Assembly (NCBI GenBank): GCA_003142575.1
Contig: PLMS01000093.1
Span: 2,995-66,994, forward strand
Direction of reading: 5' to 3'
DNA: 64,000 bases
Source of the DNA: Ignavibacteriota bacterium
GTDB lineage: Bacteria; Bacteroidota; Ignavibacteria; UBA10030
Of this stretch, positions 2,019 through 63,279 are shown in pieces. How positions within the stretch are numbered: the stretch's first letter is position 1; each line of letters begins with the position of its first letter. The notes under the pieces are model-generated. The model was not told the origin of the DNA. It was given only the letters and a program-made list of their open reading frames with translations, and made no database searches. Both the position numbers and the translations under genes were made by a program.

Positions 2019-3635
2019 TTACTTATTGTGCGCAAAGTCCGCAAAATAAAATGTCAGAAAAAGTCTCTGTTGCGTGTATACCTTGTTCACCCCGGGGAAA
2101 TCACGTAAATATAAGTTTTCGTAAATAATCTCATCTTCAAATCCAATCCCGACATTACTGAAGAGGTGGAATTCAATTCTCGGTTTAATGATACCCATAT
2201 AATTGTTCCCTGAGGGACCGACGTAAGTACTGATCCAATAATAATAGCTCAACAAGGTTGCGCTGAAAATATCGCCAACCTTCAACGTGATATCGCACTT
2301 TGTTTGGGCTCCACCGCTAAAATTATAATCTCTTCCCTCCGATGTATCCGTTATGACCTGGGTTGAGTTGCCCGCAAAAGGTATTACAGCCAAATGAAAA
2401 TCTATAAACAGATTCGTCCCCTTACCGAGCGGCACCATCGTAATGACAACGCCCCCGAACGACATCGTGCTCAGTTCGAAAGCTTTATTATCCCAATACT
2501 CAAAACCTTGAGTTAGTCCGATGAGCATCGGGGCATCCCCCACTTTAACATTTGTACCCGTGAGAATACCGTACCCAACGATATTATCGACCCATTTTCT
2601 GCCTAGTCCGAAATTCATATCGGCCCGAAGTCGAAAGTAGTCGTATGGCTTCCGATCTCTTTCCTCGAACGGTTTTCCATAATCAAAATCAGCGTTCATA
2701 CTAAATCCGACTGGTCCTGTGCCAAATGATTTTACATCATTAACTATGATGCCGCCGGCCGATATAACAACATCAGTCGGTTCTTTTTGGTATACCTCTT
2801 CCGTATTATGCGCGAACATTTTCCCGTTCATGAATCTGGTGAATGCCCTGCCGGGACTCAAAAGAAGGGCCAGGAACTCCCTGCCGTACCTTTCTGCTCC
2901 GACGGTTCTCTCATCGAGAGCAATTGATGAGAGTCTGTACAGAACTTCACCGGCGAACATGCCGCCGAGAGTTGTAGCAATCAGATCATTCCTCTCCGGT
3001 TTTCCATCGGGCCAGCCATTCTCTCCGAAAAGTTTATACGTATATGCTCCTCCAAATACAAATATCGACGATTCCCAAAAGTTATATCCGCTCGCGCGTG
3101 CCGAATTGAAGTAGCCCGCGCCCGTATACGGGTGCAGGAAGAAGTTATTGCCGAATCTATCGTTGTCCCATTTCCATCCATTACCCCATGGGAAACCGGA
3201 TTTAATGGCAGTGCGATTCCAGGAATTGAATCCCACTACCGCCCAATTATAACCAATAACATAATGATCGACCAAGTTGACGAGCGTATTTTGTGCCAAG
3301 ACCTTCATAATCGGCTGCCACAATGGAGCCCTTTTGTTATAGATTGGGTCATCATTGAGCAAACCCCGGTACTCGTTATAAACGTGAGCAGTCGAGTCTT
3401 GAACTAGAATTTTCTTATAGGTCGTATCCGTAGCGACAACATTCGTCTTTACATTGGTTTCCTCAATATGCTGTTTGGTCGCATCCGGAATCGGAGTGTA
3501 TTTCTTAACTTCGTTCGTGTCCTGAAGAGCATCCTTTAACTTGGCCAGCGTATCCAGCTTTACAAGAGACTGTGCCTGAAGTAATCCTGAACACCATAAC
3601 GAGATCATCAAAATGCATAGTATAAAGTTTTTCAT
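2019..3635 (-). CDS. Secreted or outer-membrane protein of unknown family. Tandem paralog B.
   Basis: Signal peptide MKNFILCILMISLWCSGLLQAQS. Collinear motif conservation with 422..1969. Confidence 0.7.
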   Translation of the reverse strand: MKNFILCILMISLWCSGLLQAQSLVKLDTLAKLKDALQDTNEVKKYTPIPDATKQHIEETNVKTNVVATDTTYKKILVQDSTAHVYNEYRGLLNDDPIYNKRAPLWQPIMKVLAQNTLVNLVDHYVIGYNWAVVGFNSWNRTAIKSGFPWGNGWKWDNDRFGNNFFLHPYTGAGYFNSARASGYNFWESSIFVFGGAYTYKLFGENGWPDGKPERNDLIATTLGGMFAGEVLYRLSSIALDERTVGAERYGREFLALLLSPGRAFTRFMNGKMFAHNTEEVYQKEPTDVVISAGGIIVNDVKSFGTGPVGFSMNADFDYGKPFEERDRKPYDYFRLRADMNFGLGRKWVDNIVGYGILTGTNVKVGDAPMLIGLTQGFEYWDNKAFELSTMSFGGVVITMVPLGKGTNLFIDFHLAVIPFAGNSTQVITDTSEGRDYNFSGGAQTKCDITLKVGDIFSATLLSYYYWISTYVGPSGNNYMGIIKPRIEFHLFSNVGIGFEDEIIYENLYLRDFPGVNKVYTQQRLFLTFYFADFAHNK

Positions 3636-3786
3636 TGTATTCCTCTTTGCATCGTCTATACTTCGTCGGCGTAATGCCATATGTCGGTTCACTTTCAGTC
3701 CCCGCATCTTTTATCTAAAATAGTTGACAAGAGAACAACCTGGTATTTGGTCGTTCTCCTGTCGATTAAAAACGTCGTCATCGCTG

Positions 3787-44707: not shown

Positions 44708-47184
44708 TATAATTTTTCCTTAACTGTAAATAGATTATATTCAGCCAATGATTCGTTGACTGACGTAACTTTCACTTTTTCATTGATCAATTTATCGATA
44801 AGTATCTTACCAGTTTTCAATTTGTTATAATTCGATCTAATTGTATCGAAAAACAAAATTTTCCAACTATCAAGTTCGAATCGTTCCGCAAACATCGGTG
44901 ATTTCATCTTACGCTGAAGCTGTTCTTCCCGCTCCTGAGGTATGATCATATACTTTGGTACATCCTGTGAAAGATTCGATCCGCGAACCAATCCGCTTGT
45001 CATTGTTGTTGTTGATTCTACTTCGAATGCTGCAACAACTTTGTTCCCTTTGATCCAGAGTAAATCGATCATCTCGACGGTTTTCAGGTCTTCAATACCG
45101 CTCACCTTGGAAAGGTCGGCATCAACATAGTTTTGAAGAAGCTTCTTTGCCCCTATAATTCCAGCAGCAAAATCAGTTTGTTCCTTTTTTCCAATCCAGA
45201 TTTTATAACCTAGAGCTTGTCCGACTTCTGCCAACACCGCAATGATTTCGCTGTGCTGACTTATTCGCTCGCGCACTTGTGGCTTTAGCAACCAGAATCC
45301 ACCGGTCACAGGTCGTGCATATTGTTCCAGTGCCTCTTTAATACTCGTGCTATCCGATGTCAGCGAGTTAGGAAATTGAATACTCACAGCTTCCCACGCA
45401 TCTGTGAATGTTACTCTTCCTTTTCCTTGAAGAAGACGCAAAACAGTCTGCTCTACTCGCTCGGTAAGCGGAATTTCTTTCAATCGCGCCACTTGATTCG
45501 GATCCTTGAACCACCACAACTGTCCTTTTGCACCTCCAAGACGTTCTTCTACTAACTTAAACTCTTGGCCGATGTGGTTTTTCAACACCATTTTGACATC
45601 TAGTCCTGTATGCAGATTGGAGAAGTATCCTTGCTTTGCCAAAATAGGATCGATAAAATTGATAACAATGGTATATGGAGTTGGTTCTGCTCTTTCCGCC
45701 AGCAATTGGATTGTGGTATCAACAACAATCTTTTCAAAACGCTTCTCATCAATTTCTTCCGGTACTTCAATGCGAGATGCTTCCGATTGTGGTTTGTGAA
45801 AACGAAGATAAAAATCACCCTGGGCAGAACCAAATGGTTGCAGAAGTGATTTTCCTGATTTTTGTGCAGTAGGTTGATGATGAATTTTTTCAAGCTCAAA
45901 TCCAGCATACGTTCCCGCGCGAATTGTTGCATTTCGCACTTGAAACGTGGGATTATGAAATGTGACAGTCATGTAGCGCCCAAGTTTCAGCGCTGCATGC
46001 ATTCCCTCAAAACTGCTTTTCAATAAACCGTGATAAACATCGAAATCTTTATGTTGCCGTTCATTGCGAACAACTTCTTTAGCAGAAATTGTATCAGTGT
46101 AACCCGTATCCTTTTTCAACCAGGCAGCCCACATATATGAAAGCTCGCCGTATTGGATCGAAGCATCGTATGGAGGATCAGTAAAGATATAATCCACTGA
46201 GCGTGAGGTAAGTTTTGCAAAGACATCCAGACAATCGCCAGTGATTATGCAGATGTCTGCTTTCCCTTCAAGGACTTGCTTGGGGTTCGTGGTTATCTTC
46301 ACATCCTTAAAAAATTTGTTGGATTCCACCTTCGCTTTAAGAAGTCCCTGATGACCAAGTATTGAACTTTCAAATTTATTCCAGACATTTTGTTCCATGA
46401 ATTCAGGCGCAAACCAAAAGCTATGTTGTGTCCACACAGAACTGAATGCGGTTTGATGATTAGTTGGCGCCGGGCTGAGAGCGGGTACCATCGTTGAACA
46501 CAAATGCACCATTGAGGAGAATGCAATTTTCAAGAAAGCTTTTAACTTCTCATCTTCCTCTTTCTCAATGGATTTCATCAGCAAAGCAAGTGCATAGAGA
46601 TTTCGTGGAGTAAATAGTTCATCGATGGATTCATACCGTTCCTTCTTCATAAACGGTGTTCCATCTGAATAATAAAGCGGATTCTTTGGATACCAAATTT
46701 TTTTCTTGTTGAATTCTTCTTCGATCTCTTTTATTCTTTTGAGATCTTTCCTGGTTGGTTTTCCGCCTTTTTCAACAACTTTACCACAGTTTGTGCATTT
46801 GTAACGAAGTTCTTTGAGAGTCAGATTTTTCTTTTCATCCCGATTCCAAATTGAACACTCAACCGGAATATCTTCACCACATTTCCGACATTCCGTTACG
46901 TACAAACCATCGATCTGCGACTTTACATCTTGTTCAACACGGACAAATGCTTCCCGCAAGCGAAGTGGTTCTATATATTCAACAGTAAGCCGTAATATTT
47001 CTGTCGCAATAGGATTGAGATCAACGGCAATCACTTTCCTTCCAAGCTTCAATGCTTCTAGTGCAGTGACGCCACTGCCGGAGAATGGATCCATCACTAT
47101 ACCACCCTTCGGGCAATACGTTTCGATAAATTGCGATATAACATTCCAGGTTTTTCTTCCCCAGAATTTGTGCCAATTGTACAT
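44707..47184 (-). CDS. Circularly permuted N6/N4 DNA methyltransferase with a zinc ribbon (COG1743-like) and an uncharacterised C-terminal domain of about 400 aa.
   Basis: Motif I MDPFSGSGVTALEALKLGRKVIAVDLNP is near the N-terminus. A C4 zinc ribbon follows (CRKCGED...CTNCGK). Motif IV VDYIFTDPPYDASIQYG lies about 300 aa later. The stop overlaps the mutase start codon by 1 nt. GC looks lower than neighbours by eye. I use the internal ATG start (MYNWHKFW), although the track ORF starts at a TTG. Confidence 0.75.
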   Translation of the reverse strand: MYNWHKFWGRKTWNVISQFIETYCPKGGIVMDPFSGSGVTALEALKLGRKVIAVDLNPIATEILRLTVEYIEPLRLREAFVRVEQDVKSQIDGLYVTECRKCGEDIPVECSIWNRDEKKNLTLKELRYKCTNCGKVVEKGGKPTRKDLKRIKEIEEEFNKKKIWYPKNPLYYSDGTPFMKKERYESIDELFTPRNLYALALLMKSIEKEEDEKLKAFLKIAFSSMVHLCSTMVPALSPAPTNHQTAFSSVWTQHSFWFAPEFMEQNVWNKFESSILGHQGLLKAKVESNKFFKDVKITTNPKQVLEGKADICIITGDCLDVFAKLTSRSVDYIFTDPPYDASIQYGELSYMWAAWLKKDTGYTDTISAKEVVRNERQHKDFDVYHGLLKSSFEGMHAALKLGRYMTVTFHNPTFQVRNATIRAGTYAGFELEKIHHQPTAQKSGKSLLQPFGSAQGDFYLRFHKPQSEASRIEVPEEIDEKRFEKIVVDTTIQLLAERAEPTPYTIVINFIDPILAKQGYFSNLHTGLDVKMVLKNHIGQEFKLVEERLGGAKGQLWWFKDPNQVARLKEIPLTERVEQTVLRLLQGKGRVTFTDAWEAVSIQFPNSLTSDSTSIKEALEQYARPVTGGFWLLKPQVRERISQHSEIIAVLAEVGQALGYKIWIGKKEQTDFAAGIIGAKKLLQNYVDADLSKVSGIEDLKTVEMIDLLWIKGNKVVAAFEVESTTTMTSGLVRGSNLSQDVPKYMIIPQEREEQLQRKMKSPMFAERFELDSWKILFFDTIRSNYNKLKTGKILIDKLINEKVKVTSVNESLAEYNLFTVKEKL

Positions 47185-47243: not shown

Positions 47244-47462
47244 AGGCTGGTGAGAAGTTGGAACTCCTTCCCAGCCATATTTACGTCCTTCACAGTTTAC
47301 AACTTCGCATTCACTGCTGATTTACCGGCGTAGATCGAGTTTGTTCCGAGTTCTTCCTCAATGTGGAGTAATTGATTCTACTTCGAATGCTGCAACAACT
47401 TTGTTCCCTTTGATTCAAAGTGAATCGATCATCTCGACGGTTTTCAGGTCTTCAATACTGCT
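47244..47462. repeat. Chimeric diverged duplicate: enolase 3' end plus 3'UTR hairpin (~48742..48874) fused by microhomology to an internal MTase fragment (~45012..45102).
   Basis: Hand alignment gives about 80 bp matching the last ~23 enolase codons plus the stop, then about 88 bp matching the MTase interior. The junction lies at attgattNtacttcg, which is shared by both sources. There are about 9 substitutions and all are transitions. Confidence 0.7.
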
Positions 47463-47484: not shown

Positions 47485-48627
47485 TTAATTAATATTAAGA
47501 ACAAGCGGTATTGTCACTCGGAATGTCGTTCCTTCTTCTTGCGATGTAGTAAACGAAACTTTTCCATGGAGATACCGCTCACTTAGTAGTTTCATACTGT
47601 ATGTGCCAAGTCCACGGTTCGAACCATTTGTAGAAAATGATCGTTGGAACATTTGCAACTGAACATTTCTTGGAATAAACGATGTATTGTGCACCCAAAA
47701 TTCAACAGATTCGTTGTGATGAGCACAGCCTACTGTAACTATTCCTTTTTCTGGAGATGCTTCGAGTGCATTCTTAATCATATTGCCAAGAACACGTCCC
47801 AATAAAGTTGAGTCGGATACAAACATAATTCGCATTGCATGAAGATCAACGCTGATTGTACGATTTTCCGCAACAATGTGGTGGCGATAGAATTCGCAAA
47901 CTTCTTGTATGCAATCAATTGAATTAATCTCTTTTGGGTTTGCTGCTAATTCATTGCTTTCTGCTGCCGCAAGTTCAACTTGTGCTTTAATTTCATCAAT
48001 AAGTTTTCTCAAAAGATGTTTGATTGTACTCAGACATTCTTTCTGAATTTGCGGATCTTCTTCTTCCATCATCTCAAAGTACCCAGTGAGTCCTCCTGTC
48101 GTGTTTAATACATCATGGAAAAATATTCGTTCTAACGCACGACGGCGTTTTTCGTGACTAATATCGCTAATCGTAAAAATCGTGAATGTTCCATGATAGG
48201 TATTCAGAGGTGTTGCGGTAACTCTCAATTCCAATGGGTCTAAATTTCCTTCTCGCGATATTAAATATTCCTGAACACTTGCATTTCCTTTCTGGCTGAC
48301 AAGGATGGCACGCACAGCACCGCATGTACGGCAATATTCTGTTGTACCGCATCCACCTTCGCTTTCTATTGCATGTATACATCGCAACACTTCGCCATGT
48401 CTTTTCCCATGTGAAGAATGTTCTCCAGATAATTTCATGAATTTGTCCATTGCATGATTGGCAAAAACAATTTGCCTGTGTTCATTCAAAATTACAACTA
48501 TGATAGGTACAGCATTCAGTACTTCACTCTGTAAAGAGTTTTTTATAAAAAAATTAATTTGTTGATTCAAATCTTCTGTGGTTGCACGTTCTGCTGGCGC
48601 ATATTGTGTCGGTAATGATGTAATCAA
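47485..48627 (-). CDS. Cytoplasmic sensor histidine kinase with an N-terminal 4-Cys (C-x10-C-x6-C-x2-C) PAS-like sensor domain.
   Basis: H-box FFHDVLNTTGGL. HATPase GNMIKNALEASPEKG ... GLGTYSMKLL. Cys cluster CIHAIESEGGCGTTEYCRTCG. No TM segment. Confidence 0.75.
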   Translation of the reverse strand: MITSLPTQYAPAERATTEDLNQQINFFIKNSLQSEVLNAVPIIVVILNEHRQIVFANHAMDKFMKLSGEHSSHGKRHGEVLRCIHAIESEGGCGTTEYCRTCGAVRAILVSQKGNASVQEYLISREGNLDPLELRVTATPLNTYHGTFTIFTISDISHEKRRRALERIFFHDVLNTTGGLTGYFEMMEEEDPQIQKECLSTIKHLLRKLIDEIKAQVELAAAESNELAANPKEINSIDCIQEVCEFYRHHIVAENRTISVDLHAMRIMFVSDSTLLGRVLGNMIKNALEASPEKGIVTVGCAHHNESVEFWVHNTSFIPRNVQLQMFQRSFSTNGSNRGLGTYSMKLLSERYLHGKVSFTTSQEEGTTFRVTIPLVLNIN

Positions 48628-48793
48628 GACAATCTTCCTTTATTTTGTAAACTTTTGTCAGCAAATTCTAAGCAATTAAAAAATAATATCAAAACGCGAG
48701 AGAATATTTCCACACAACGAAGCAGTGAAGAGTGCGCCATGTGGCTGGGAGTGTACCTCCCTCCCAGTTTCTTCGTGTTCTTCATCGATATCT

Positions 48794-50185
<1,392 letters not shown>

Positions 50186-57519: not shown

Positions 57520-58404
57520 ATGAAACGTTCTTATCTTTTTATCTTTGTTGTCTTACTCGCATCTTCGCTCTCATTGGCTCAGGTGCAGATCGAAGACGAG
57601 CTGTATTCATCTGTCGTAGGCATTGAAGGCAAAACACATCAAGGACGCTGTGAGTTCATCAAAAATCAATTACATGCTCTCGGTGTTGGGTACGTCGCTG
57701 CGCCGTTTAATCATATTGTCGTCAATAAAAAAGATACAACGATGACCAAAGGTGAAAATATTATCGTTCGGGTCGGAGCAGGGACAAAGCGAATCGTTGT
57801 CGGAGCGCACTACGATGCATTTGGCGAGTCCCCAGGCGCCAATGATAACGGCAGCGGCGTTGCTGTTTTGCTTTCGCTCATTAAACAACTTCAAGATACG
57901 GTGTGGAATTACAGTGTGGATTTTTGTTTCTTCGATCTGGAAGAGGCAGGGCTCCTCGGATCAGATTATTATATCACACAGTTTGTCATCCCTCAGCGTC
58001 ATATTGCGATGATCAATCTCGATATTGAAGGCACAGGTGAGGAAGTGTATGTGGGACCGGTCGGCAGCAATAGTCAAAATATTATGCGTTATGTTCATGA
58101 AGCAGCGAAACAAACAGGGTTCCCGTTCTTTGAGAGCGCGGAGTTCCCCGCTTCGGATCAAGTGTCGTTTGAAAAATCCAATTTGCAAGATATCGCCGTT
58201 TCGATCGTTCCGAAAGGTGACGCCGAGCGTTTAAGTAAGTATGTGCGCAACGGCTACAAAGCCGATTCCATCGATACACCGAAAGTTCTTGGTGTCATGC
58301 ATACATTTGAAGATCGTTCGAGACTTGTCTCTCCTGCATCGCTGAAGATGTCGTATGAATTCACCAAAACTTTGCTGATGCTCCTGAACGAGTCTGGAAG
58401 GTAG
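57520..58404 (+). CDS. M28 family peptidase (aminopeptidase-like), secreted.
   Basis: VGAHYDAFGESPGANDNGSGVAVLLSL is the M28 zinc-ligand motif. Signal peptide. Confidence 0.8.
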   Translation: MKRSYLFIFVVLLASSLSLAQVQIEDELYSSVVGIEGKTHQGRCEFIKNQLHALGVGYVAAPFNHIVVNKKDTTMTKGENIIVRVGAGTKRIVVGAHYDAFGESPGANDNGSGVAVLLSLIKQLQDTVWNYSVDFCFFDLEEAGLLGSDYYITQFVIPQRHIAMINLDIEGTGEEVYVGPVGSNSQNIMRYVHEAAKQTGFPFFESAEFPASDQVSFEKSNLQDIAVSIVPKGDAERLSKYVRNGYKADSIDTPKVLGVMHTFEDRSRLVSPASLKMSYEFTKTLLMLLNESGR

Positions 58405-58952
58405 TTCTGCACGTTGATGAGACTCTCAGCGTAGACTGTGTGACACCTACCGGACAACAACAAGCATCGTCAGGTTTGAATGCACTCATGAAAACATTCG
58501 GGAATGATAAATTTATTTTGTTAAGCGCTGTTCCTACCGTGCGTAACGTCAGTTTGTAAGTCGGACAATTGAAGATATTTATCCTATCATGTATTGATGT
58601 ATGCCAACAAAAATAGAAATTGCCCGTTGCTGCCTCCTTTGATCCATCGAAAACTTTTTACTTAAGATAATTTTGGATCACTTTTTGGGAGACAGGTCAA
58701 TGTTGTTCCAGTCCCAATGTGATCCACCTCTCTTTTTTTGACCAAATATTTCCAAGCCGCGAGGAACAACTCTTGCAGTTGCTATCCGTTTATGAGGCGC
58801 AAAATATGCAGTATGGTGCATTACTTGCACGAGTGAAGAAAGAAGATTCTTCATTTCAAACAGATTTCCTGATTTTCTATGCGGCATATAGATTGCAGTG
58901 TTATTTGTGAAGTAATCCATTTTCATCATAGAACATTATAAATGAGAGAGAA

Positions 58953-59080
58953 ATGAAAAATAAATTCTGTTTTTTTTTCAGCAACCGTATTAACCATCGC
59001 ACTGATTTTCATTCATTCCCTTCTATCGCAAACTGCACCAATACCAGAGTGCACCAAAGAGTACATCGGAATTCTCTGAA
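58953..59080 (+). pseudogene. Remnant N-terminus of a secreted protein, interrupted by a T9 homopolymer.
   Basis: The ATG is followed by a run of 9 T. One T fewer would give MKNKFCFFSATVLTIALIFIHSLLSQTAPIPECTKEYIGIL then a stop. Confidence 0.3.
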
Positions 59081-59275
59081 ATCGAGTAATGGGCATAACG
59101 GTAAATCTCCGTACACAATAAACAAATCCGACGGTAGTTCAGTGAAACTGATGAATCGATTATTAAATAATTTATAAATCGTTATTAAAACATTAGAATT
59201 CCCGGAAATTATTCCTCACCCTATTTTAGATTCTCGAAGTTTCTCACTACTGGCGACAGGAAAACTTAGGGAATC

Positions 59276-59393
59276 TTGTCATGCATACATTGGAAGACCG
59301 TTCGAGACTTATCTCTCCGGCATCGCTGAAGATATCATTTGAATTCACCAAAACTTTGCTGATGCTCCTGAATGAGTCTGGAAGATAGTTCCA
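59276..59393 (+). repeat. Diverged duplicate of the M28 peptidase 3' end (last ~35 codons plus stop), about 880 bp downstream of the intact gene.
   Basis: Hand alignment to ~58291..58408 gives about 9 substitutions, 5 synonymous and 4 conservative (F/L, V/I, M/I, Y/F). Frame and stop are preserved. Confidence 0.7.
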
Positions 59394-59439
59394 TTGATAT
59401 CTGTAACCCTCACCACTTTAAATAGTAGTAATGTTTTAA

Positions 59440-59459
59440 ATCTGGACAAGCCGAGCTTG
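59440..59459 (+). repeat. 20-bp direct repeat DR1, copy a (atctggacaagccgagcttg). Copy b lies at ~61043..61062.
   Basis: Exact 20-mer occurring twice about 1.6 kb apart in the same orientation. Confidence 0.6.
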
Positions 59460-59515
59460 CCTGCCCTGAATTCTTTTTCCGGGGAGCGCTTGGTTAGCCC
59501 GCGGCCTCACAAGAA

Positions 59516-59980
59516 TCACCGTTGCACGAATGCAGACTCCAACGTTTCGAGAACCCTCTCGCGTGTCGGGAATGTCATTATTCCCACCAAGATTAATAAA
59601 ACGGCAGATGCTGCATTCAGCCAATACATCGGATAAAATTCTATTGTCCCGTTCTGAACCCCAATCATACAAATCACGGCTCCGAAGAAGGAAGCTCCTT
59701 CAATTGGCGCCATGAGTAATAGTGAGCTTGCCCGGTATAATCCCACGGCATAAAGAGCTGCCTCTTCCGGTGTTTGAATGTCAGACTGCTCGGTGAGACG
59801 TTCGGGACGCAGCTGAAGGCTTGAGAGATAGAACGCTATTGTGGCCGCTACCAGCGTGAACACAGCATGTGCTACGGAAAGCACATTCATCAACGACATA
59901 TCTTGTTTGCTAAAGCTGTCAGGATTGAACATGGAATATAATAGAAGAACTACGAAGTAGTAGAACGAGATTCCAAGCAT
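59516..59980 (-). CDS. Small 4-TM membrane protein of unknown function.
   Basis: Hydrophobic helices, internal start at MLGISFYYF. Lies in an AT-rich region. Confidence 0.45.
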   Translation of the reverse strand: MLGISFYYFVVLLLYSMFNPDSFSKQDMSLMNVLSVAHAVFTLVAATIAFYLSSLQLRPERLTEQSDIQTPEEAALYAVGLYRASSLLLMAPIEGASFFGAVICMIGVQNGTIEFYPMYWLNAASAVLLILVGIMTFPTRERVLETLESAFVQR

Positions 59981-60105
59981 CAGGGCAATTCTGATGATCA
60001 CAATTACTCGCAATTGTTTCGCTGTCAAGGCTTGTTCAAGATGTATTCGACTGAAATTAATTGAAAAAGTCACAATAATATTCTCTGATATTTTGTTGGA
60101 TAAAT

Positions 60106-60122
60106 GCCGCCGCGCCCTAACG
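60106..60122 (+). repeat. Direct repeat DR2, copy a (cctaacggacggg then ctcc). Copy b lies at ~60815..60834.
   Basis: 13-bp exact core plus flanking similarity. Nested inside the DR1 pair. Confidence 0.5.
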
Positions 60123-60279
60123 GACGGGCTCCCGATAAATCGGGATGCGGTACTGATAATTTTCAATATGTAAATAACGAACCAAGTTCATTGTACCAAC
60201 TTTCAAATTATCTTAAAAGTTTTGGGGCACCATAATGAAAAAGGGCGGTCATCTCTTTATCTCTGAGTGAGACTATTTG

Positions 60280-60768
60280 TTAATGCAATCTGAGAGCGAT
60301 CATCAAGCCGACCAAGGAGGCAATCAATCCAGCAAAAGAGGCGGCAAAGGAAAACATCGCAATAAGAAAATTGAGTTGAGAAGCATAACTATTATACACC
60401 CGTTGGTAATTGACTATCATCGAATCGAATGCATACTTTCCATAGAGCCTGACATCACGGAGGACATCCATATAATGAAAAAAGCTTGTATTAGCATCTA
60501 CCTCTTCTGGGAAATTAAGATTAGGATGAATAGTAAAAACAGAAACCTCCTTATCCCAAAGGAGAAAACGCCCATGAAGTTCTTTGACCTGTTTGCCAAG
60601 TAAGCCAATTTTCTTTCTTTGGCCATATAAAAATAACTCAGGAATATGATAGTCCACAATAAGACGATTAATGCGATCATGCTCAGCCATAATTAAGTTG
60701 TGTTCAGCAAGAAGAGAAAAGTATATCGGATTCTTTTTTCTTTCTATTGCAATGGTGTTTATTTTCAT
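60280..60768 (-). CDS. Hypothetical tail-anchored protein (162 aa, C-terminal TM helix).
   Basis: Soluble N-terminal domain of about 130 aa. C-terminal helix FLIAMFSFAASFAGLIASLVGLMIAL. Confidence 0.45.
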   Translation of the reverse strand: MKINTIAIERKKNPIYFSLLAEHNLIMAEHDRINRLIVDYHIPELFLYGQRKKIGLLGKQVKELHGRFLLWDKEVSVFTIHPNLNFPEEVDANTSFFHYMDVLRDVRLYGKYAFDSMIVNYQRVYNSYASQLNFLIAMFSFAASFAGLIASLVGLMIALRLH

Positions 60769-61185
60769 ATTGAGAATGCCCTAAAATTATTTAGAAATAT
60801 TTTATGCTATGTGGCCTAACGGACGGGTGCTCCGCCAACCAGCCCGCTGCGCGTTCTGGCGGGAAAGACGGCGGACAAGTAAGTTTATCCCCAAATGTTT
60901 TTGTTGGGGACTGCCACACACCATACTTCCAAAATATACTAAACCGTTACCAGCCATGCTTAACGTACCCATTTATCCGCCATGCTTTATCTTTGGGCGG
61001 GCGCTTATTGAGATTAAGTATCGCGCTTTGCGCGATTCAATTATCTGGACAAGCCGAGCTTGTTGAGCGTTGTTTGCACGTTTTTCAGTGTCCCGTTCTT
61101 TCATCAACGGGGAGAAATCCCGCTGTTTCGCGTTGTGTGCGTCCCAATGTTTTATATCGGGATGGCGGGGGTTATGTTGCAATTG

Positions 61186-63279
61186 CTATCTCAACAATAC
61201 AAGTTTTCTTGTTTCTGAAAATGCACCTGCCCTCAAGCGATAAAAATATATTCCGCTTGACATATTTGCCGCATTCCATTGCTGAAGATGATTTCCAGCA
61301 GATAACTCTTCATTGACAAGAGTTGCAATCTCTCTGCCCATAATATCAAATACTTTCAGCGTGACAAAAGATTCTGATGGGAGACTAAATGAGATAGCTG
61401 TACTTGGGTTGAATGGATTGGGATAGTTCTGTTGAAGGTTATAAATCTTTGGCAGCTGAGAAGATGCTTGTCCGACAGATGCAGAGGTAATCATTTCAGA
61501 GAGAGATCGTTTCCAAACAACTCCACTACCAGCTCCAGCAAATAGATTTTCACCAATCACTCTGAGAGCGTATACCGGAGCATTTGGCAATCCGGTATTT
61601 ACAGAAGCCCAACTCGTTCCATTATTAGTAGAAAGAAAAATACCTCCGAGCCAGGTTCCGGCAAATATATTTTTGCCGCTGGCAGCGAGATCAAAAATAT
61701 TGATATCGGTCAAGCCGTTATTAACTGCAGTCCAACTAACACCGTTGTTTGTTGATAGAAAAATACCCCCGCCCAAAGTTCCAACAAAGATATTTGTATC
61801 ACAAATTAAAATTGTACGCACTTGATACTTCGACGACACAACACCAAGGGATGTCCAGCTTGAACCATTATTACTCGAAACAAAAACACCACCGCTGTCA
61901 GTCCCCGCATAAATAGTATTATTGTCTACCGTCAGGTCAAATACATCCATATTTGTCAATCCGATATTGGCAGCATTCCAATTTGCGCCATTGTCTGAGG
62001 AAAGGAATATACCATTACCATACGTTCCTGCAAAAAGATATGAACCAGAGATAGCAAGAGTTTGAATATTATTATTAGTCAGTCCTGTATTGCTAGTTGA
62101 CCATGTAGTACCATTGTCGGTGGAAATAAAGAAACCGTCGACTTCAGTTCCGACAAAGATATTTGAATTACTTACTACAAGCGATGAAATATTGTATATA
62201 TTCCTTTCAGTATTGAGACGCGTCCAATTCAATCCATCATTTGTGGAAACAAATACTCCGCTCGACCAAGTAGCGGCATAAATATTTGAACCTTTTGTAT
62301 TAAACGCATGGACTTCAGTTGCCGATAGACCGGAGTCGCATTCATTCCAATTTGCACCGTCATTGTTGGTGATAAAAACACCGACTTCCGTACCGGCAAA
62401 GAGGCTTGTTCCATACTCCATTAAAGCAAATACAGACATAGCTGCTAATCCAGTATTTACTCTGGACCAACTTGTTCCATTATTTGTAGATAGAAAAACA
62501 CCATACCCATTTGTACCTGCAAAGAGCATGGTATCACCTATGCCATTTGAACGAACTGCAAAAGCAGTAATATTATTAGAATATGGATTAATCAAGTTTG
62601 TGGTATTCCAATTTGCACCATTATTTGTGGAAATATAAATATCTCCATAACTGGTTCCGGCAAAGAGATCCGAACCGCTTGCAATCAGAGCAGTAATGCC
62701 AGTATGCGTTAATCCTGTATTGACTTCAGTCCAACTCGTACCATTATTTGTAGTACGAAAGACACCCCCATCTGTGCCCACAAAAAGATTTGTATCCTTT
62801 ATAGCAAAAGAACTAACACGTAAATTTGTTAATCCCGTATTGACCGCAGTCCAACTTGTCCCATTATTAGTAGACAAGAAAACTCCTTCGTCAAAAGTCC
62901 CGGCAAAAAGGTTTTTATCGCTCGCTATAAGTGCCTGAATTCCAGTTGTTGTTAATCCTGTATTAATGGAATTCCAGCTTTTTCCGTTATCCTCAGAAAG
63001 AAACATACCACCCCATGTACCGGCAAAAAGATTTGTTCCAATAACTGCAAGTGCATGAATAGTAGTATTAATCAATCCTGAATTTGCAGGCACCCAATTT
63101 GTCCCGCCATCCGTAGAAAGGAAAACACCGGCTCCGTATGTTCCAGTAAAAATATTCGTGCCACTGCATGCGAAAGATGTAATATATCCTCCTCCCGGCA
63201 CGCTGGTTTGAACCCATTGAGAGAAAGATTCCGTTGACAAAAGCATTAAACTCGTAACAACAAATAAAATCTTTTTCAT
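61186..63279 (-). CDS. BNR/Ycf48-like beta-propeller repeat protein with a Por/T9SS C-terminal sorting domain.
   Basis: About 14 tandem repeats of roughly 26 aa (GTxGGGVFLSTNNGTSWT). The C-terminal tail is NYPNPFNPSTAISFSLP ... SGIYFYRL ... KLVLLR. Signal peptide. Confidence 0.8.
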   Translation of the reverse strand: MKKILFVVTSLMLLSTESFSQWVQTSVPGGGYITSFACSGTNIFTGTYGAGVFLSTDGGTNWVPANSGLINTTIHALAVIGTNLFAGTWGGMFLSEDNGKSWNSINTGLTTTGIQALIASDKNLFAGTFDEGVFLSTNNGTSWTAVNTGLTNLRVSSFAIKDTNLFVGTDGGVFRTTNNGTSWTEVNTGLTHTGITALIASGSDLFAGTSYGDIYISTNNGANWNTTNLINPYSNNITAFAVRSNGIGDTMLFAGTNGYGVFLSTNNGTSWSRVNTGLAAMSVFALMEYGTSLFAGTEVGVFITNNDGANWNECDSGLSATEVHAFNTKGSNIYAATWSSGVFVSTNDGLNWTRLNTERNIYNISSLVVSNSNIFVGTEVDGFFISTDNGTTWSTSNTGLTNNNIQTLAISGSYLFAGTYGNGIFLSSDNGANWNAANIGLTNMDVFDLTVDNNTIYAGTDSGGVFVSSNNGSSWTSLGVVSSKYQVRTILICDTNIFVGTLGGGIFLSTNNGVSWTAVNNGLTDINIFDLAASGKNIFAGTWLGGIFLSTNNGTSWASVNTGLPNAPVYALRVIGENLFAGAGSGVVWKRSLSEMITSASVGQASSQLPKIYNLQQNYPNPFNPSTAISFSLPSESFVTLKVFDIMGREIATLVNEELSAGNHLQQWNAANMSSGIYFYRLRAGAFSETRKLVLLR

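Follow-up and report, generated by a model that had tools for sequence, protein, structure and literature searches.

Duplicated 3′ end of an M28 peptidase gene in an uncultured Ignavibacteriota lineage as the probable scar of one-sided homologous recombination

Integrative elements target the 3′ ends of tRNA or protein-coding genes and restore them, and derivatives of the CIME type (cis-mobilizable elements) that lack an integrase also exist. The same order of a restored gene end, an insert and a displaced gene end was found at the gene of an M28 family peptidase in a window of 64,000 nt (contig PLMS01000093.1, assembly GCA_003142575.1) from an uncultured Ignavibacteriota bacterium. The 3′ end of the working gene (copy A) recurs downstream as copy B, and the two copies are followed by different sequences, named alpha behind copy A and beta behind copy B. 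The first-pass annotation of the window had proposed two mechanisms, an element that integrates into gene 3′ ends or a homology-anchored capture of a gene end, and it is the latter that fits. With a probability of roughly 0.6, the duplication is the scar left when recombination brought together two alternative forms of the M28 downstream region, and it is well explained as a known kind of recombination scar and not as a new mobile element.

The closest described processes are homology-facilitated illegitimate recombination (HFIR) and the single crossover of circular molecules. In a conjugation study with Escherichia coli, 56 of the 60 clones taken as HFIR candidates had arisen by a single crossover of a recircularised molecule, and the 14 clones sequenced had a duplicated anchor of 109–950 bp (PMC3240628). 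HFIR has also been proposed for displaced gene 3′ ends in type VI secretion system (T6SS) and Rhs loci (PMC5361080), and the same article cites it for Acinetobacter, S. pneumoniae and P. stutzeri. The M28 locus shares with these processes a single homologous anchor, an illegitimate joint at the other end and no need for a dedicated recombinase, and here too the anchor is directly duplicated, over 118–152 bp (109–950 bp in E. coli). As in HFIR, there is one non-homologous joint, with a microhomology of 4/5 nt in the window, 1–2 nt in the sister species L012 and 13/14 nt at a similar duplication of the eno gene end in the same window; alpha-only and beta-only arrangements exist in relatives, and the exact donor was not recovered. 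In contrast to the described cases, the event was natural and is fixed in an uncultured Ignavibacteriota population, and its donor would be a chromosome region of homeologous sequence rather than a plasmid. HFIR in its classical form, moreover, usually deletes recipient DNA, whereas the M28 locus shows a duplication.

Displacement of C-terminal ends in Rhs/CdiA proteins and in T6SS effector-immunity arrays (PMC5361080) is similar in that a new end and linked DNA stand behind a conserved 5′ part and the former 3′ end persists further downstream, untranslated, as a relic. The 3′ ends of those systems encode differing toxins together with immunity genes, and their diversity is under selection, whereas the two M28 ends are orthologous (92%), encode the same 35 residues with 4 substitutions, and belong to a housekeeping-type gene with neither a toxin function nor an immunity-like partner attached to it. 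With integrative elements, the locus has in common the order of restored end, insert and displaced end, as well as empty sites in relatives, but it has neither an integrase nor a constant attachment (att) boundary, its insert is spacer DNA and alpha also occurs without a partner. Integron arrays and attC-site clusters without an integrase (CALIN; PMC9024848) resemble the neighbourhood only, through small co-oriented open reading frames (ORFs), repeat ends that in some elements are similar to RYYYAAC/GTTRRRY and cassette-sized indels. The repeats here are, however, long and modular, the apparent crossover falls mid-element, within a 19-nt core, and no IntI was found among the window ORFs checked.

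The duplication of the M28 3′ end, already claimed in the first-pass annotation, was borne out by a repeat search, alignment and BLASTN. Positions 58293–58407 and 59277–59391 form a direct repeat of 115 nt, ungapped and 92% identical, with a start-to-start distance of 984 nt. Identity begins abruptly at TGTCATGCATAC and runs through the stop codon and TAGTTC until 58410 and 59394, respectively. Since BLASTN gave an E-value of 1e-43, the similarity is far beyond chance, which disposes of the earlier reservation that exact alignment might reveal no significant similarity. Copy B keeps the reading frame and the stop (ORF 59281..59388, 35 aa), and the difference pattern reported before was reproduced exactly, with nine differences between the copies, five synonymous plus F/L, V/I, M/I and Y/F.

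The C-terminus of the window M28 protein is the consensus of the working orthologues whose C-termini were compared. Copy A is 94–97% identical to the 3′ ends of L011, L012 (its copy A), L031 and L032, with copy B about 4 points further away. Polarisation of the nine differences with seven relatives placed two of them (both synonymous) as derived on copy A and seven on copy B, the latter being 3 synonymous and 4 non-synonymous changes, 5 of the 7 G>A or C>T. The F->L and M->I changes of copy B appear in 0 of the 30 working orthologues read, while V->I and Y->F are present in working orthologues. Since its derived changes divide in this way and F->L and M->I are absent from working orthologues, copy B looks like a decaying relic. 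The working past of copy B had originally been deduced from the coding-type divergence, an argument that proved weak, given this 3/4 division of the derived changes and a P of 0.07 for five synonymous differences out of nine under random substitution with the same transition/transversion mix; 82% of random substitution sets make no stop. As a caution for annotation, synonymous-looking substitutions in a 35-codon relic do not prove past selection. Copy B was, all the same, once a working M28 3′ end, as is seen from its linkage to beta, that is, from synteny and not from the substitution pattern.

Among related genomes, the M28 stop codon is followed by either of the two alternative sequences. 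Beta (CATTTATATCTGTAACCC...TCTGGACAAGCCGAGCTTG...GGTTAGGC) follows a single-copy M28 gene in L011, L013, L014, L029/L030 and L032, and alpha (TGCA[CA]GTTGATGAGACTCTCAG...) follows a single-copy M28 gene in L031 and, in a shorter form, in L036, where a second gene end is absent within 5 kb (L031) and about 3 kb (L036). In the window, the order is M28 body, copy A, alpha ... copy B, beta, so that each downstream sequence stands behind its own M28 3′ end. Copy B is thus the displaced original gene end, as had been suggested, since its beta sequence is the one that follows single-copy M28 in L011, L013, L014, L029 and L032. The empty site, recommended as a check in related genomes, was found as single-copy M28 plus beta (L011, L013, L014).

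In the 6.8 kb directly before copy A, made up of the M28 body and 6 kb upstream of it, nucleotide identities of 92–93% leave the window, L011 and L012 as an unresolved trio, with L013 and L014 outside. The sister species L012 shows the same tandem order as the window, which was confirmed by the independent 68-kb JGI contig L027. In L012/L027, copy B starts 38 nt further upstream than in the window, with a duplicated anchor of 152 nt versus 118 nt. The window and L012 inserts share only their first ~72 nt (alpha), and a global alignment beyond the first 80 nt was no better than shuffles. The rest of the L012 insert contains an intact HigB/HigA toxin-antitoxin pair (L012 6993–7669; also in L027), of which no remnants were detected in the window insert by tblastn. 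In one metagenome scan, an alpha 22-mer was found only in one window-type and one L012-type contig, with no other context.

Two side observations concern these relatives. A HigBA module with 79% nucleotide identity over 722 nt, including the palindromic promoter region, is also present at L038 3949–4668, and in L038–L042 the module adjoins an IS1-like transposase at a different chromosomal place. Behind a shared M28 protein (P0014) and a shared beta element, L033 and L035 continue with small ORFs and EI24-like/DUF2085 genes, but L034 with an rve-family transposase. Even inside a single species, the sequence downstream of M28 varies.

The host lineage is an uncultured Ignavibacteriota of peat and fen metagenomes, and the exact window M28 protein is present on 23 contigs. 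Ten of these loci, from differing samples and assemblers (ENA, JGI, Logan), were read; further window-type loci are L026, L028 and L062–L067. The junction from copy A to the insert is identical in 10/10 loci, and the junction from the insert to copy B was seen in all eight that reach far enough. Exact look-up of the 74-aa insert ORF returned window-type M28 loci only. Since identical junctions occur in at least 10 independent assemblies, the M28 duplication is not an assembly artefact, and it is fixed in the population.

Variants of the locus within the population are minor. L007 has a 53-nt deletion within the insert (window equivalent 58841–58893), with a 6-kb upstream flank that is 100% identical, and this is consistent with no strong constraint on the insert. 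Hypermutation of the insert, suggested by the 92.9% identity in L007, was discarded, the difference being that single deletion. In L028 (ENA ERZ19982237), the M28 body is 99.1%, the insert 99.5% and copy B 100% identical to the window, while the copy A region (~3040–3230), which encodes SIITP...VIHTFEERS, is only 91.5% identical, with ~200 bp replaced. The replaced stretch is a short recombination tract from a divergent alpha-type allele.

The insert between the copies was searched for genes and for signs of mobility. Six-frame pieces of 58405–59290 gave nothing relevant in Pfam (E <= 1) or PHROGs (E <= 0.1), and three insert ORFs had no match in Pfam; the earlier remark that the insert lacks an integrase was upheld, as no recombinase remnant was found by this translated search. 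A protein search with the best insert ORF gave a single match, L037, in which positions 315–979 are 87% identical to window 58614–59281 over 673 nt. The L037 copy of this spacer piece does not adjoin M28 and its context is non-mobile, with the hairpin end followed within ~10 nt by the 3′ end of a minus-strand gene for an EI24-like membrane protein. The EI24-like gene lies 80–120 nt after M28, in convergent orientation, in the most distant relatives (L018, L019, L022, L023), 0.7–3.4 kb from M28 in other relatives, and outside the window here. Since it adjoins M28 in the most distant relatives, the convergent M28/EI24 spacer is the ancestral site, expanded in this clade. Because the right 663 bp of the insert are 87% identical to L037 beside an EI24-like gene, the insert plausibly derives from the M28-to-EI24 spacer of a relative and not from an element.

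The first-pass annotation had also described a signal-peptide ORF broken at a T9 tract. The 74-aa ORF that carries the T9 is intact, and it is intact with the same T9 in L037 (25 nt differences, 10 synonymous and 15 non-synonymous); the broken ORF is the one at 58700–58910. A promoter/terminator scan of 58200–59700 gave nothing above shuffle expectation.

The insert ends in a significant 49-nt hairpin that is also present in L017 and L037, and its 3′ foot marks the exact start of copy B (TGTCATGC in the window). With the joint marked by a slash, the sequence at the junction point is GGGACTCT/TCTCACATTG in L037 (right side starting TCTCA), GGGAATCT/TGTCATGCAT in the window (right side starting TGTCA) and GTTCTTGG/TGTCATGCAT in the intact M28 gene (CTTGG/TGTCA), which gives a microhomology of 4/5 nt (T.TCA). 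The L012 junction, …AATGATG/AAGCCGATTCC, has 1–2 nt of microhomology. By this comparison, the right joints of the window and L012 are illegitimate and not a conserved att core. The features of the locus are collected in Table 1.

Table 1. Positions of the features at and behind the M28 gene in the window (GC, guanine plus cytosine)
Feature	Position	Strand	Description
M28 family peptidase gene	57520..58404	+	Intact, 294 aa; Pfam PF04389 (Peptidase_M28), E = 1e-29
Copy A	58293..58410	+	Last 36 codons, stop and TAGTTC of the working M28; linked to the alpha downstream allele
Insert	58411-59276		866 bp between the copies; 35-39% GC vs ~46% in the flanks
Alpha segment	58411..58515	+	89% identical to L012 6894-6963; 83% to L031 4919-5014
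Stretch without match in any locus	58516..58613		~100 bp between alpha and the L037-like piece; internal breakpoint near 58613
Chromosomal spacer piece	58614..59276	+	663 bp; ORF68 homologue, 74-aa ORF, terminal hairpin
ORF68 homologue	58700-58910		5′-frameshifted by a 4-nt insertion relative to L037
74-aa ORF	58953..59177	+	Intact in the window; carries the T9 tract
Imperfect palindrome	59228..59276		49 nt, AGATTCTCGAAGTTT...AAACTTAGGGAATCT; DNA fold -8.7 kcal/mol, z = -4.5
Copy B	59277..59394	+	Displaced, untranslated M28 3′ end relic; still attached to the beta downstream sequence
Beta element	59395..59499	+	Holds the 19-nt core TCTGGACAAGCCGAGCTTG (59441-59459); terminates in GGTTAGCC
Two small ORFs	59516..60073/60166 and 60280..60768	-	Within 59460..61062; absent from L011

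These data can be accommodated in a model of one-sided homologous recombination. The beta-type lineage has the order M28, beta repeat element and small cassette-like genes, and the alpha-type lineage has M28 and alpha, behind which a short spacer with small ORFs and the hairpin, and then the convergent EI24-like gene, would have followed. DNA of an alpha-type relative, with no less than the final 118 bp of M28 and the full spacer as far as the hairpin, would have entered a beta-type cell. The M28 part of the donor would recombine homologously with the recipient gene, and the far end, without a nearby homologue, would be joined illegitimately at a few bases of microhomology. By a linear route, this end would be joined directly backward to the recipient M28 at codon 259, which corresponds to HFIR; by a circular route, for which the E. 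coli study is a direct precedent, the fragment would close at the hairpin/codon-259 joint, and a single Campbell-type crossover would then take place within the 118 bp of homology. Either route would yield M28 body, copy A, alpha, spacer, hairpin / copy B, beta. The recombinant would be viable since the working gene stays intact, and copy B, no longer translated, would decay, with no integrase involved. The structure and its fixation, the two parental alleles, the chromosomal character of the insert, the illegitimate joints and the absence of an integrase from the sequences searched are shown directly, whereas we infer which lineage was the donor and which the recipient, what physical form the intermediate had and by which route the DNA entered.

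Some points weigh against this model or limit what it says. No alpha-type donor was found with exactly the window insert beside M28, as L031 matches only the first 100 nt of the insert and L037 is without M28, and no alpha-type contig with the spacer piece was recovered. The ~100 bp at 58516–58613 are unexplained by the model, and the 4/5-nt microhomology at the window junction could be due to chance. The linear (HFIR) and circular (single-crossover) routes would give the same product, inseparable by sequence alone. As to the number of events, the copies B of the window and L012 share a derived T>G (F->L), which argues for one ancestral event, while three other sites have one letter in both copies of the window and another in both copies of L012, which argues for independent events or gene conversion. 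The L012 scar would stem from a second event at this hot spot, or else from one ancestral event plus insert turnover.

Other explanations were weighed against the same data. That an alpha-type and a beta-type strain were co-assembled into one chained contig, the outcome that the first-pass annotation had named as fatal to its claim, has a next to negligible probability. Both parental types do share the same kind of peat and fen samples, but the hairpin/copy B joint, present in neither parent, was obtained base-for-base alike from several assemblers in at least 10 samples, and the L012-type layout was likewise reproduced in L027. The integrative-element reading of that annotation was not supported either. 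It would take the locus as the remnant of a site-specific integrative element, such as a genomic island, an integrative and conjugative element or a CIME-like derivative, with an attP carrying the M28 3′ end, copies A and B as attL and attR, and the integrase and most of the cargo deleted. The layout is the classic footprint of such elements, empty sites exist in relatives, the GC content of the insert is lower than that of the flanks, and a toxin-antitoxin module as in L012 is common island cargo. It is nevertheless highly improbable, as no integrase or remnant of one was found in any frame of the insert (Pfam/PHROG) or among ten further window ORFs scanned against Pfam, and the L012 insert holds only HigB/HigA. 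In addition, the right repeat boundary shifts by 38 nt between the window and L012/L027, leaving no constant att boundary, alpha stands after M28 in L031 and L036 without a second copy, and the insert is homologous to ordinary chromosomal spacer DNA beside an EI24-like gene. No cargo travels as a unit, the window and L012 inserts sharing ~72 nt only, and in the single metagenome scan made, the alpha motif was confined to this place.

It is very unlikely that a site-specific recombinase, integron-like or other, acted on the modular repeats behind M28 (19-nt core, GCCTAAC/GTTAGGC-like ends) and took the M28 3′ end with it in an aberrant excision and re-insertion. The setting does invite this reading: ~12 nt separate the M28 stop from the first repeat element, indels of cassette size have direct repeats of the core at their borders, GCCTAACCAGGCGCTC... 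comes after each of the minus-strand ORFs, one cassette ORF has 97% identity between the window and L031 compared with 89.5% for M28, and integrons are known in Ignavibacteriae (PMC9024848). However, both junctions of the M28 duplication fall outside the repeat cores, and the window and L012 do not share their right junction. On folding, the elements do not form a single long imperfect hairpin (z about 0), the strict R″/R′ search gave one candidate only, and there is no integrase among the window ORFs checked. A tandem duplication in situ, from M28 codon 259 to the hairpin in an alpha-type ancestor, followed by homologous replacement of the region downstream of the second copy by a beta-type allele, is unlikely as well, though it has more in its favour than the other alternatives. 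The hairpin/TGTCATGC joint has the head-to-tail form of a tandem duplication, palindromes promote such events, the eno junction is also of this type, and homologous allelic replacement has been seen at this locus (L028). Against it, two events are needed instead of the one in the recombination model, and no trace of a second alpha/spacer copy is left after copy B. Because its final structure is the same as that of one-sided recombination, the two are not discriminated by the sequence.

The layout at eno, to which the M28 locus had been likened in the first-pass annotation, is indeed comparable. The eno 3′ end at 48793–48882 recurs at 47296–47385 (93%), and between the copies lies a GHKL histidine-kinase-like gene (47485..48627, minus strand). 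The displaced eno end is fused to a 91-nt fragment (47372–47462, equal to 45012–45102 at 96%) from the interior of the downstream 840-aa DNA methyltransferase ORF, and the fusion passes through the 13/14-nt microhomology CGAAGTA(G/T)AATCAA. The logic is the same as at M28, with a clearer illegitimate joint. In an exact look-up of the 840-aa methyltransferase ORF aimed at the empty site of eno, the protein was not on record. Since the pattern occurs at M28 in two species and at eno within the same 64 kb, a gain of DNA that regenerates gene ends might be a recurrent, possibly dedicated route at conserved genes in this clade, maybe linked to the repeats with the 19-nt core. This is quite unlikely; if true, there would be an uncharacterised site-specific or integron-like recombination system with gene-end duplications among its aberrant products.

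Read as one-sided homologous recombination, the M28 locus is a clean natural record of the process: the scar, both parents and the original surroundings of the captured DNA can all be recovered from public metagenomes. It indicates that the 3′ end of a conserved gene can anchor the entry of accessory DNA, including the toxin-antitoxin pair of the sister species, without mobile-element machinery and with the gene kept active. For annotation, it follows that a restored end, an insert and a displaced end do not prove an element borne by an integrase. Otherwise, the locus changes no general picture.

Downstream of copy B, the window exceeds L011 by 1.6 kb, a stretch with two ORFs that is flanked by direct repeats of the 19-nt core (59441–59459 and 61044–61062). 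The core is also found at L012 7953, 8983 and 10825, at L014 6938, 7718 and 8601, and at L011 6937. It sits in modular intergenic repeats, followed by one or more small hairpins and then by ...GAGCGCCTGGTTAGGC. Ends of the type GCCTAAC...GTTAGCC/GGC are present in some elements (L012 8951–9041, L011 12512–12668), and the strict search for RYYYAAC and GTTRRRY boxes gave one candidate. DNA folding did not show the repeat elements as one long attC-like hairpin but gave several small local hairpins with z from 0.05 to -1.5. The classical attC reading, supported by neither the strict R-box search nor folding, is kept as a side question only. An Rfam search of 58000–61400 found no credible RNA family. 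In a viral-contig scan, the 19-nt core gave 0 matches and a 16-mer from the repeat end matched 19 times, a number considered explicable by chance at that length. The region looks like a cassette array with a recombination core, and its repeats help explain the variability of the spot, the junctions of the M28 duplication themselves not lying in repeats.

Within this region, the 185/216-aa minus-strand ORF of the window (59480–60129) is 97% identical to L031 7500–8146. Since the M28 genes of the two are only 89.5% identical, a recent exchange of this ORF cassette between lineages is suggested.

Further repeated sequences were observed elsewhere in the window. At 61582–63168, eight to ten diverged copies of a 102–123-nt unit lie in a 697-aa minus-strand ORF with BNR/Sortilin repeats and a C-terminal sorting domain of the type IX secretion system (T9SS), an ordinary repeat-domain structure. 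At the other end of the window, two adjacent minus-strand ORFs of 525 and 562 aa (422–1999 and 2019–3707) contain segments ~71% identical at an offset of 1594 nt, and look like tandem paralogues.

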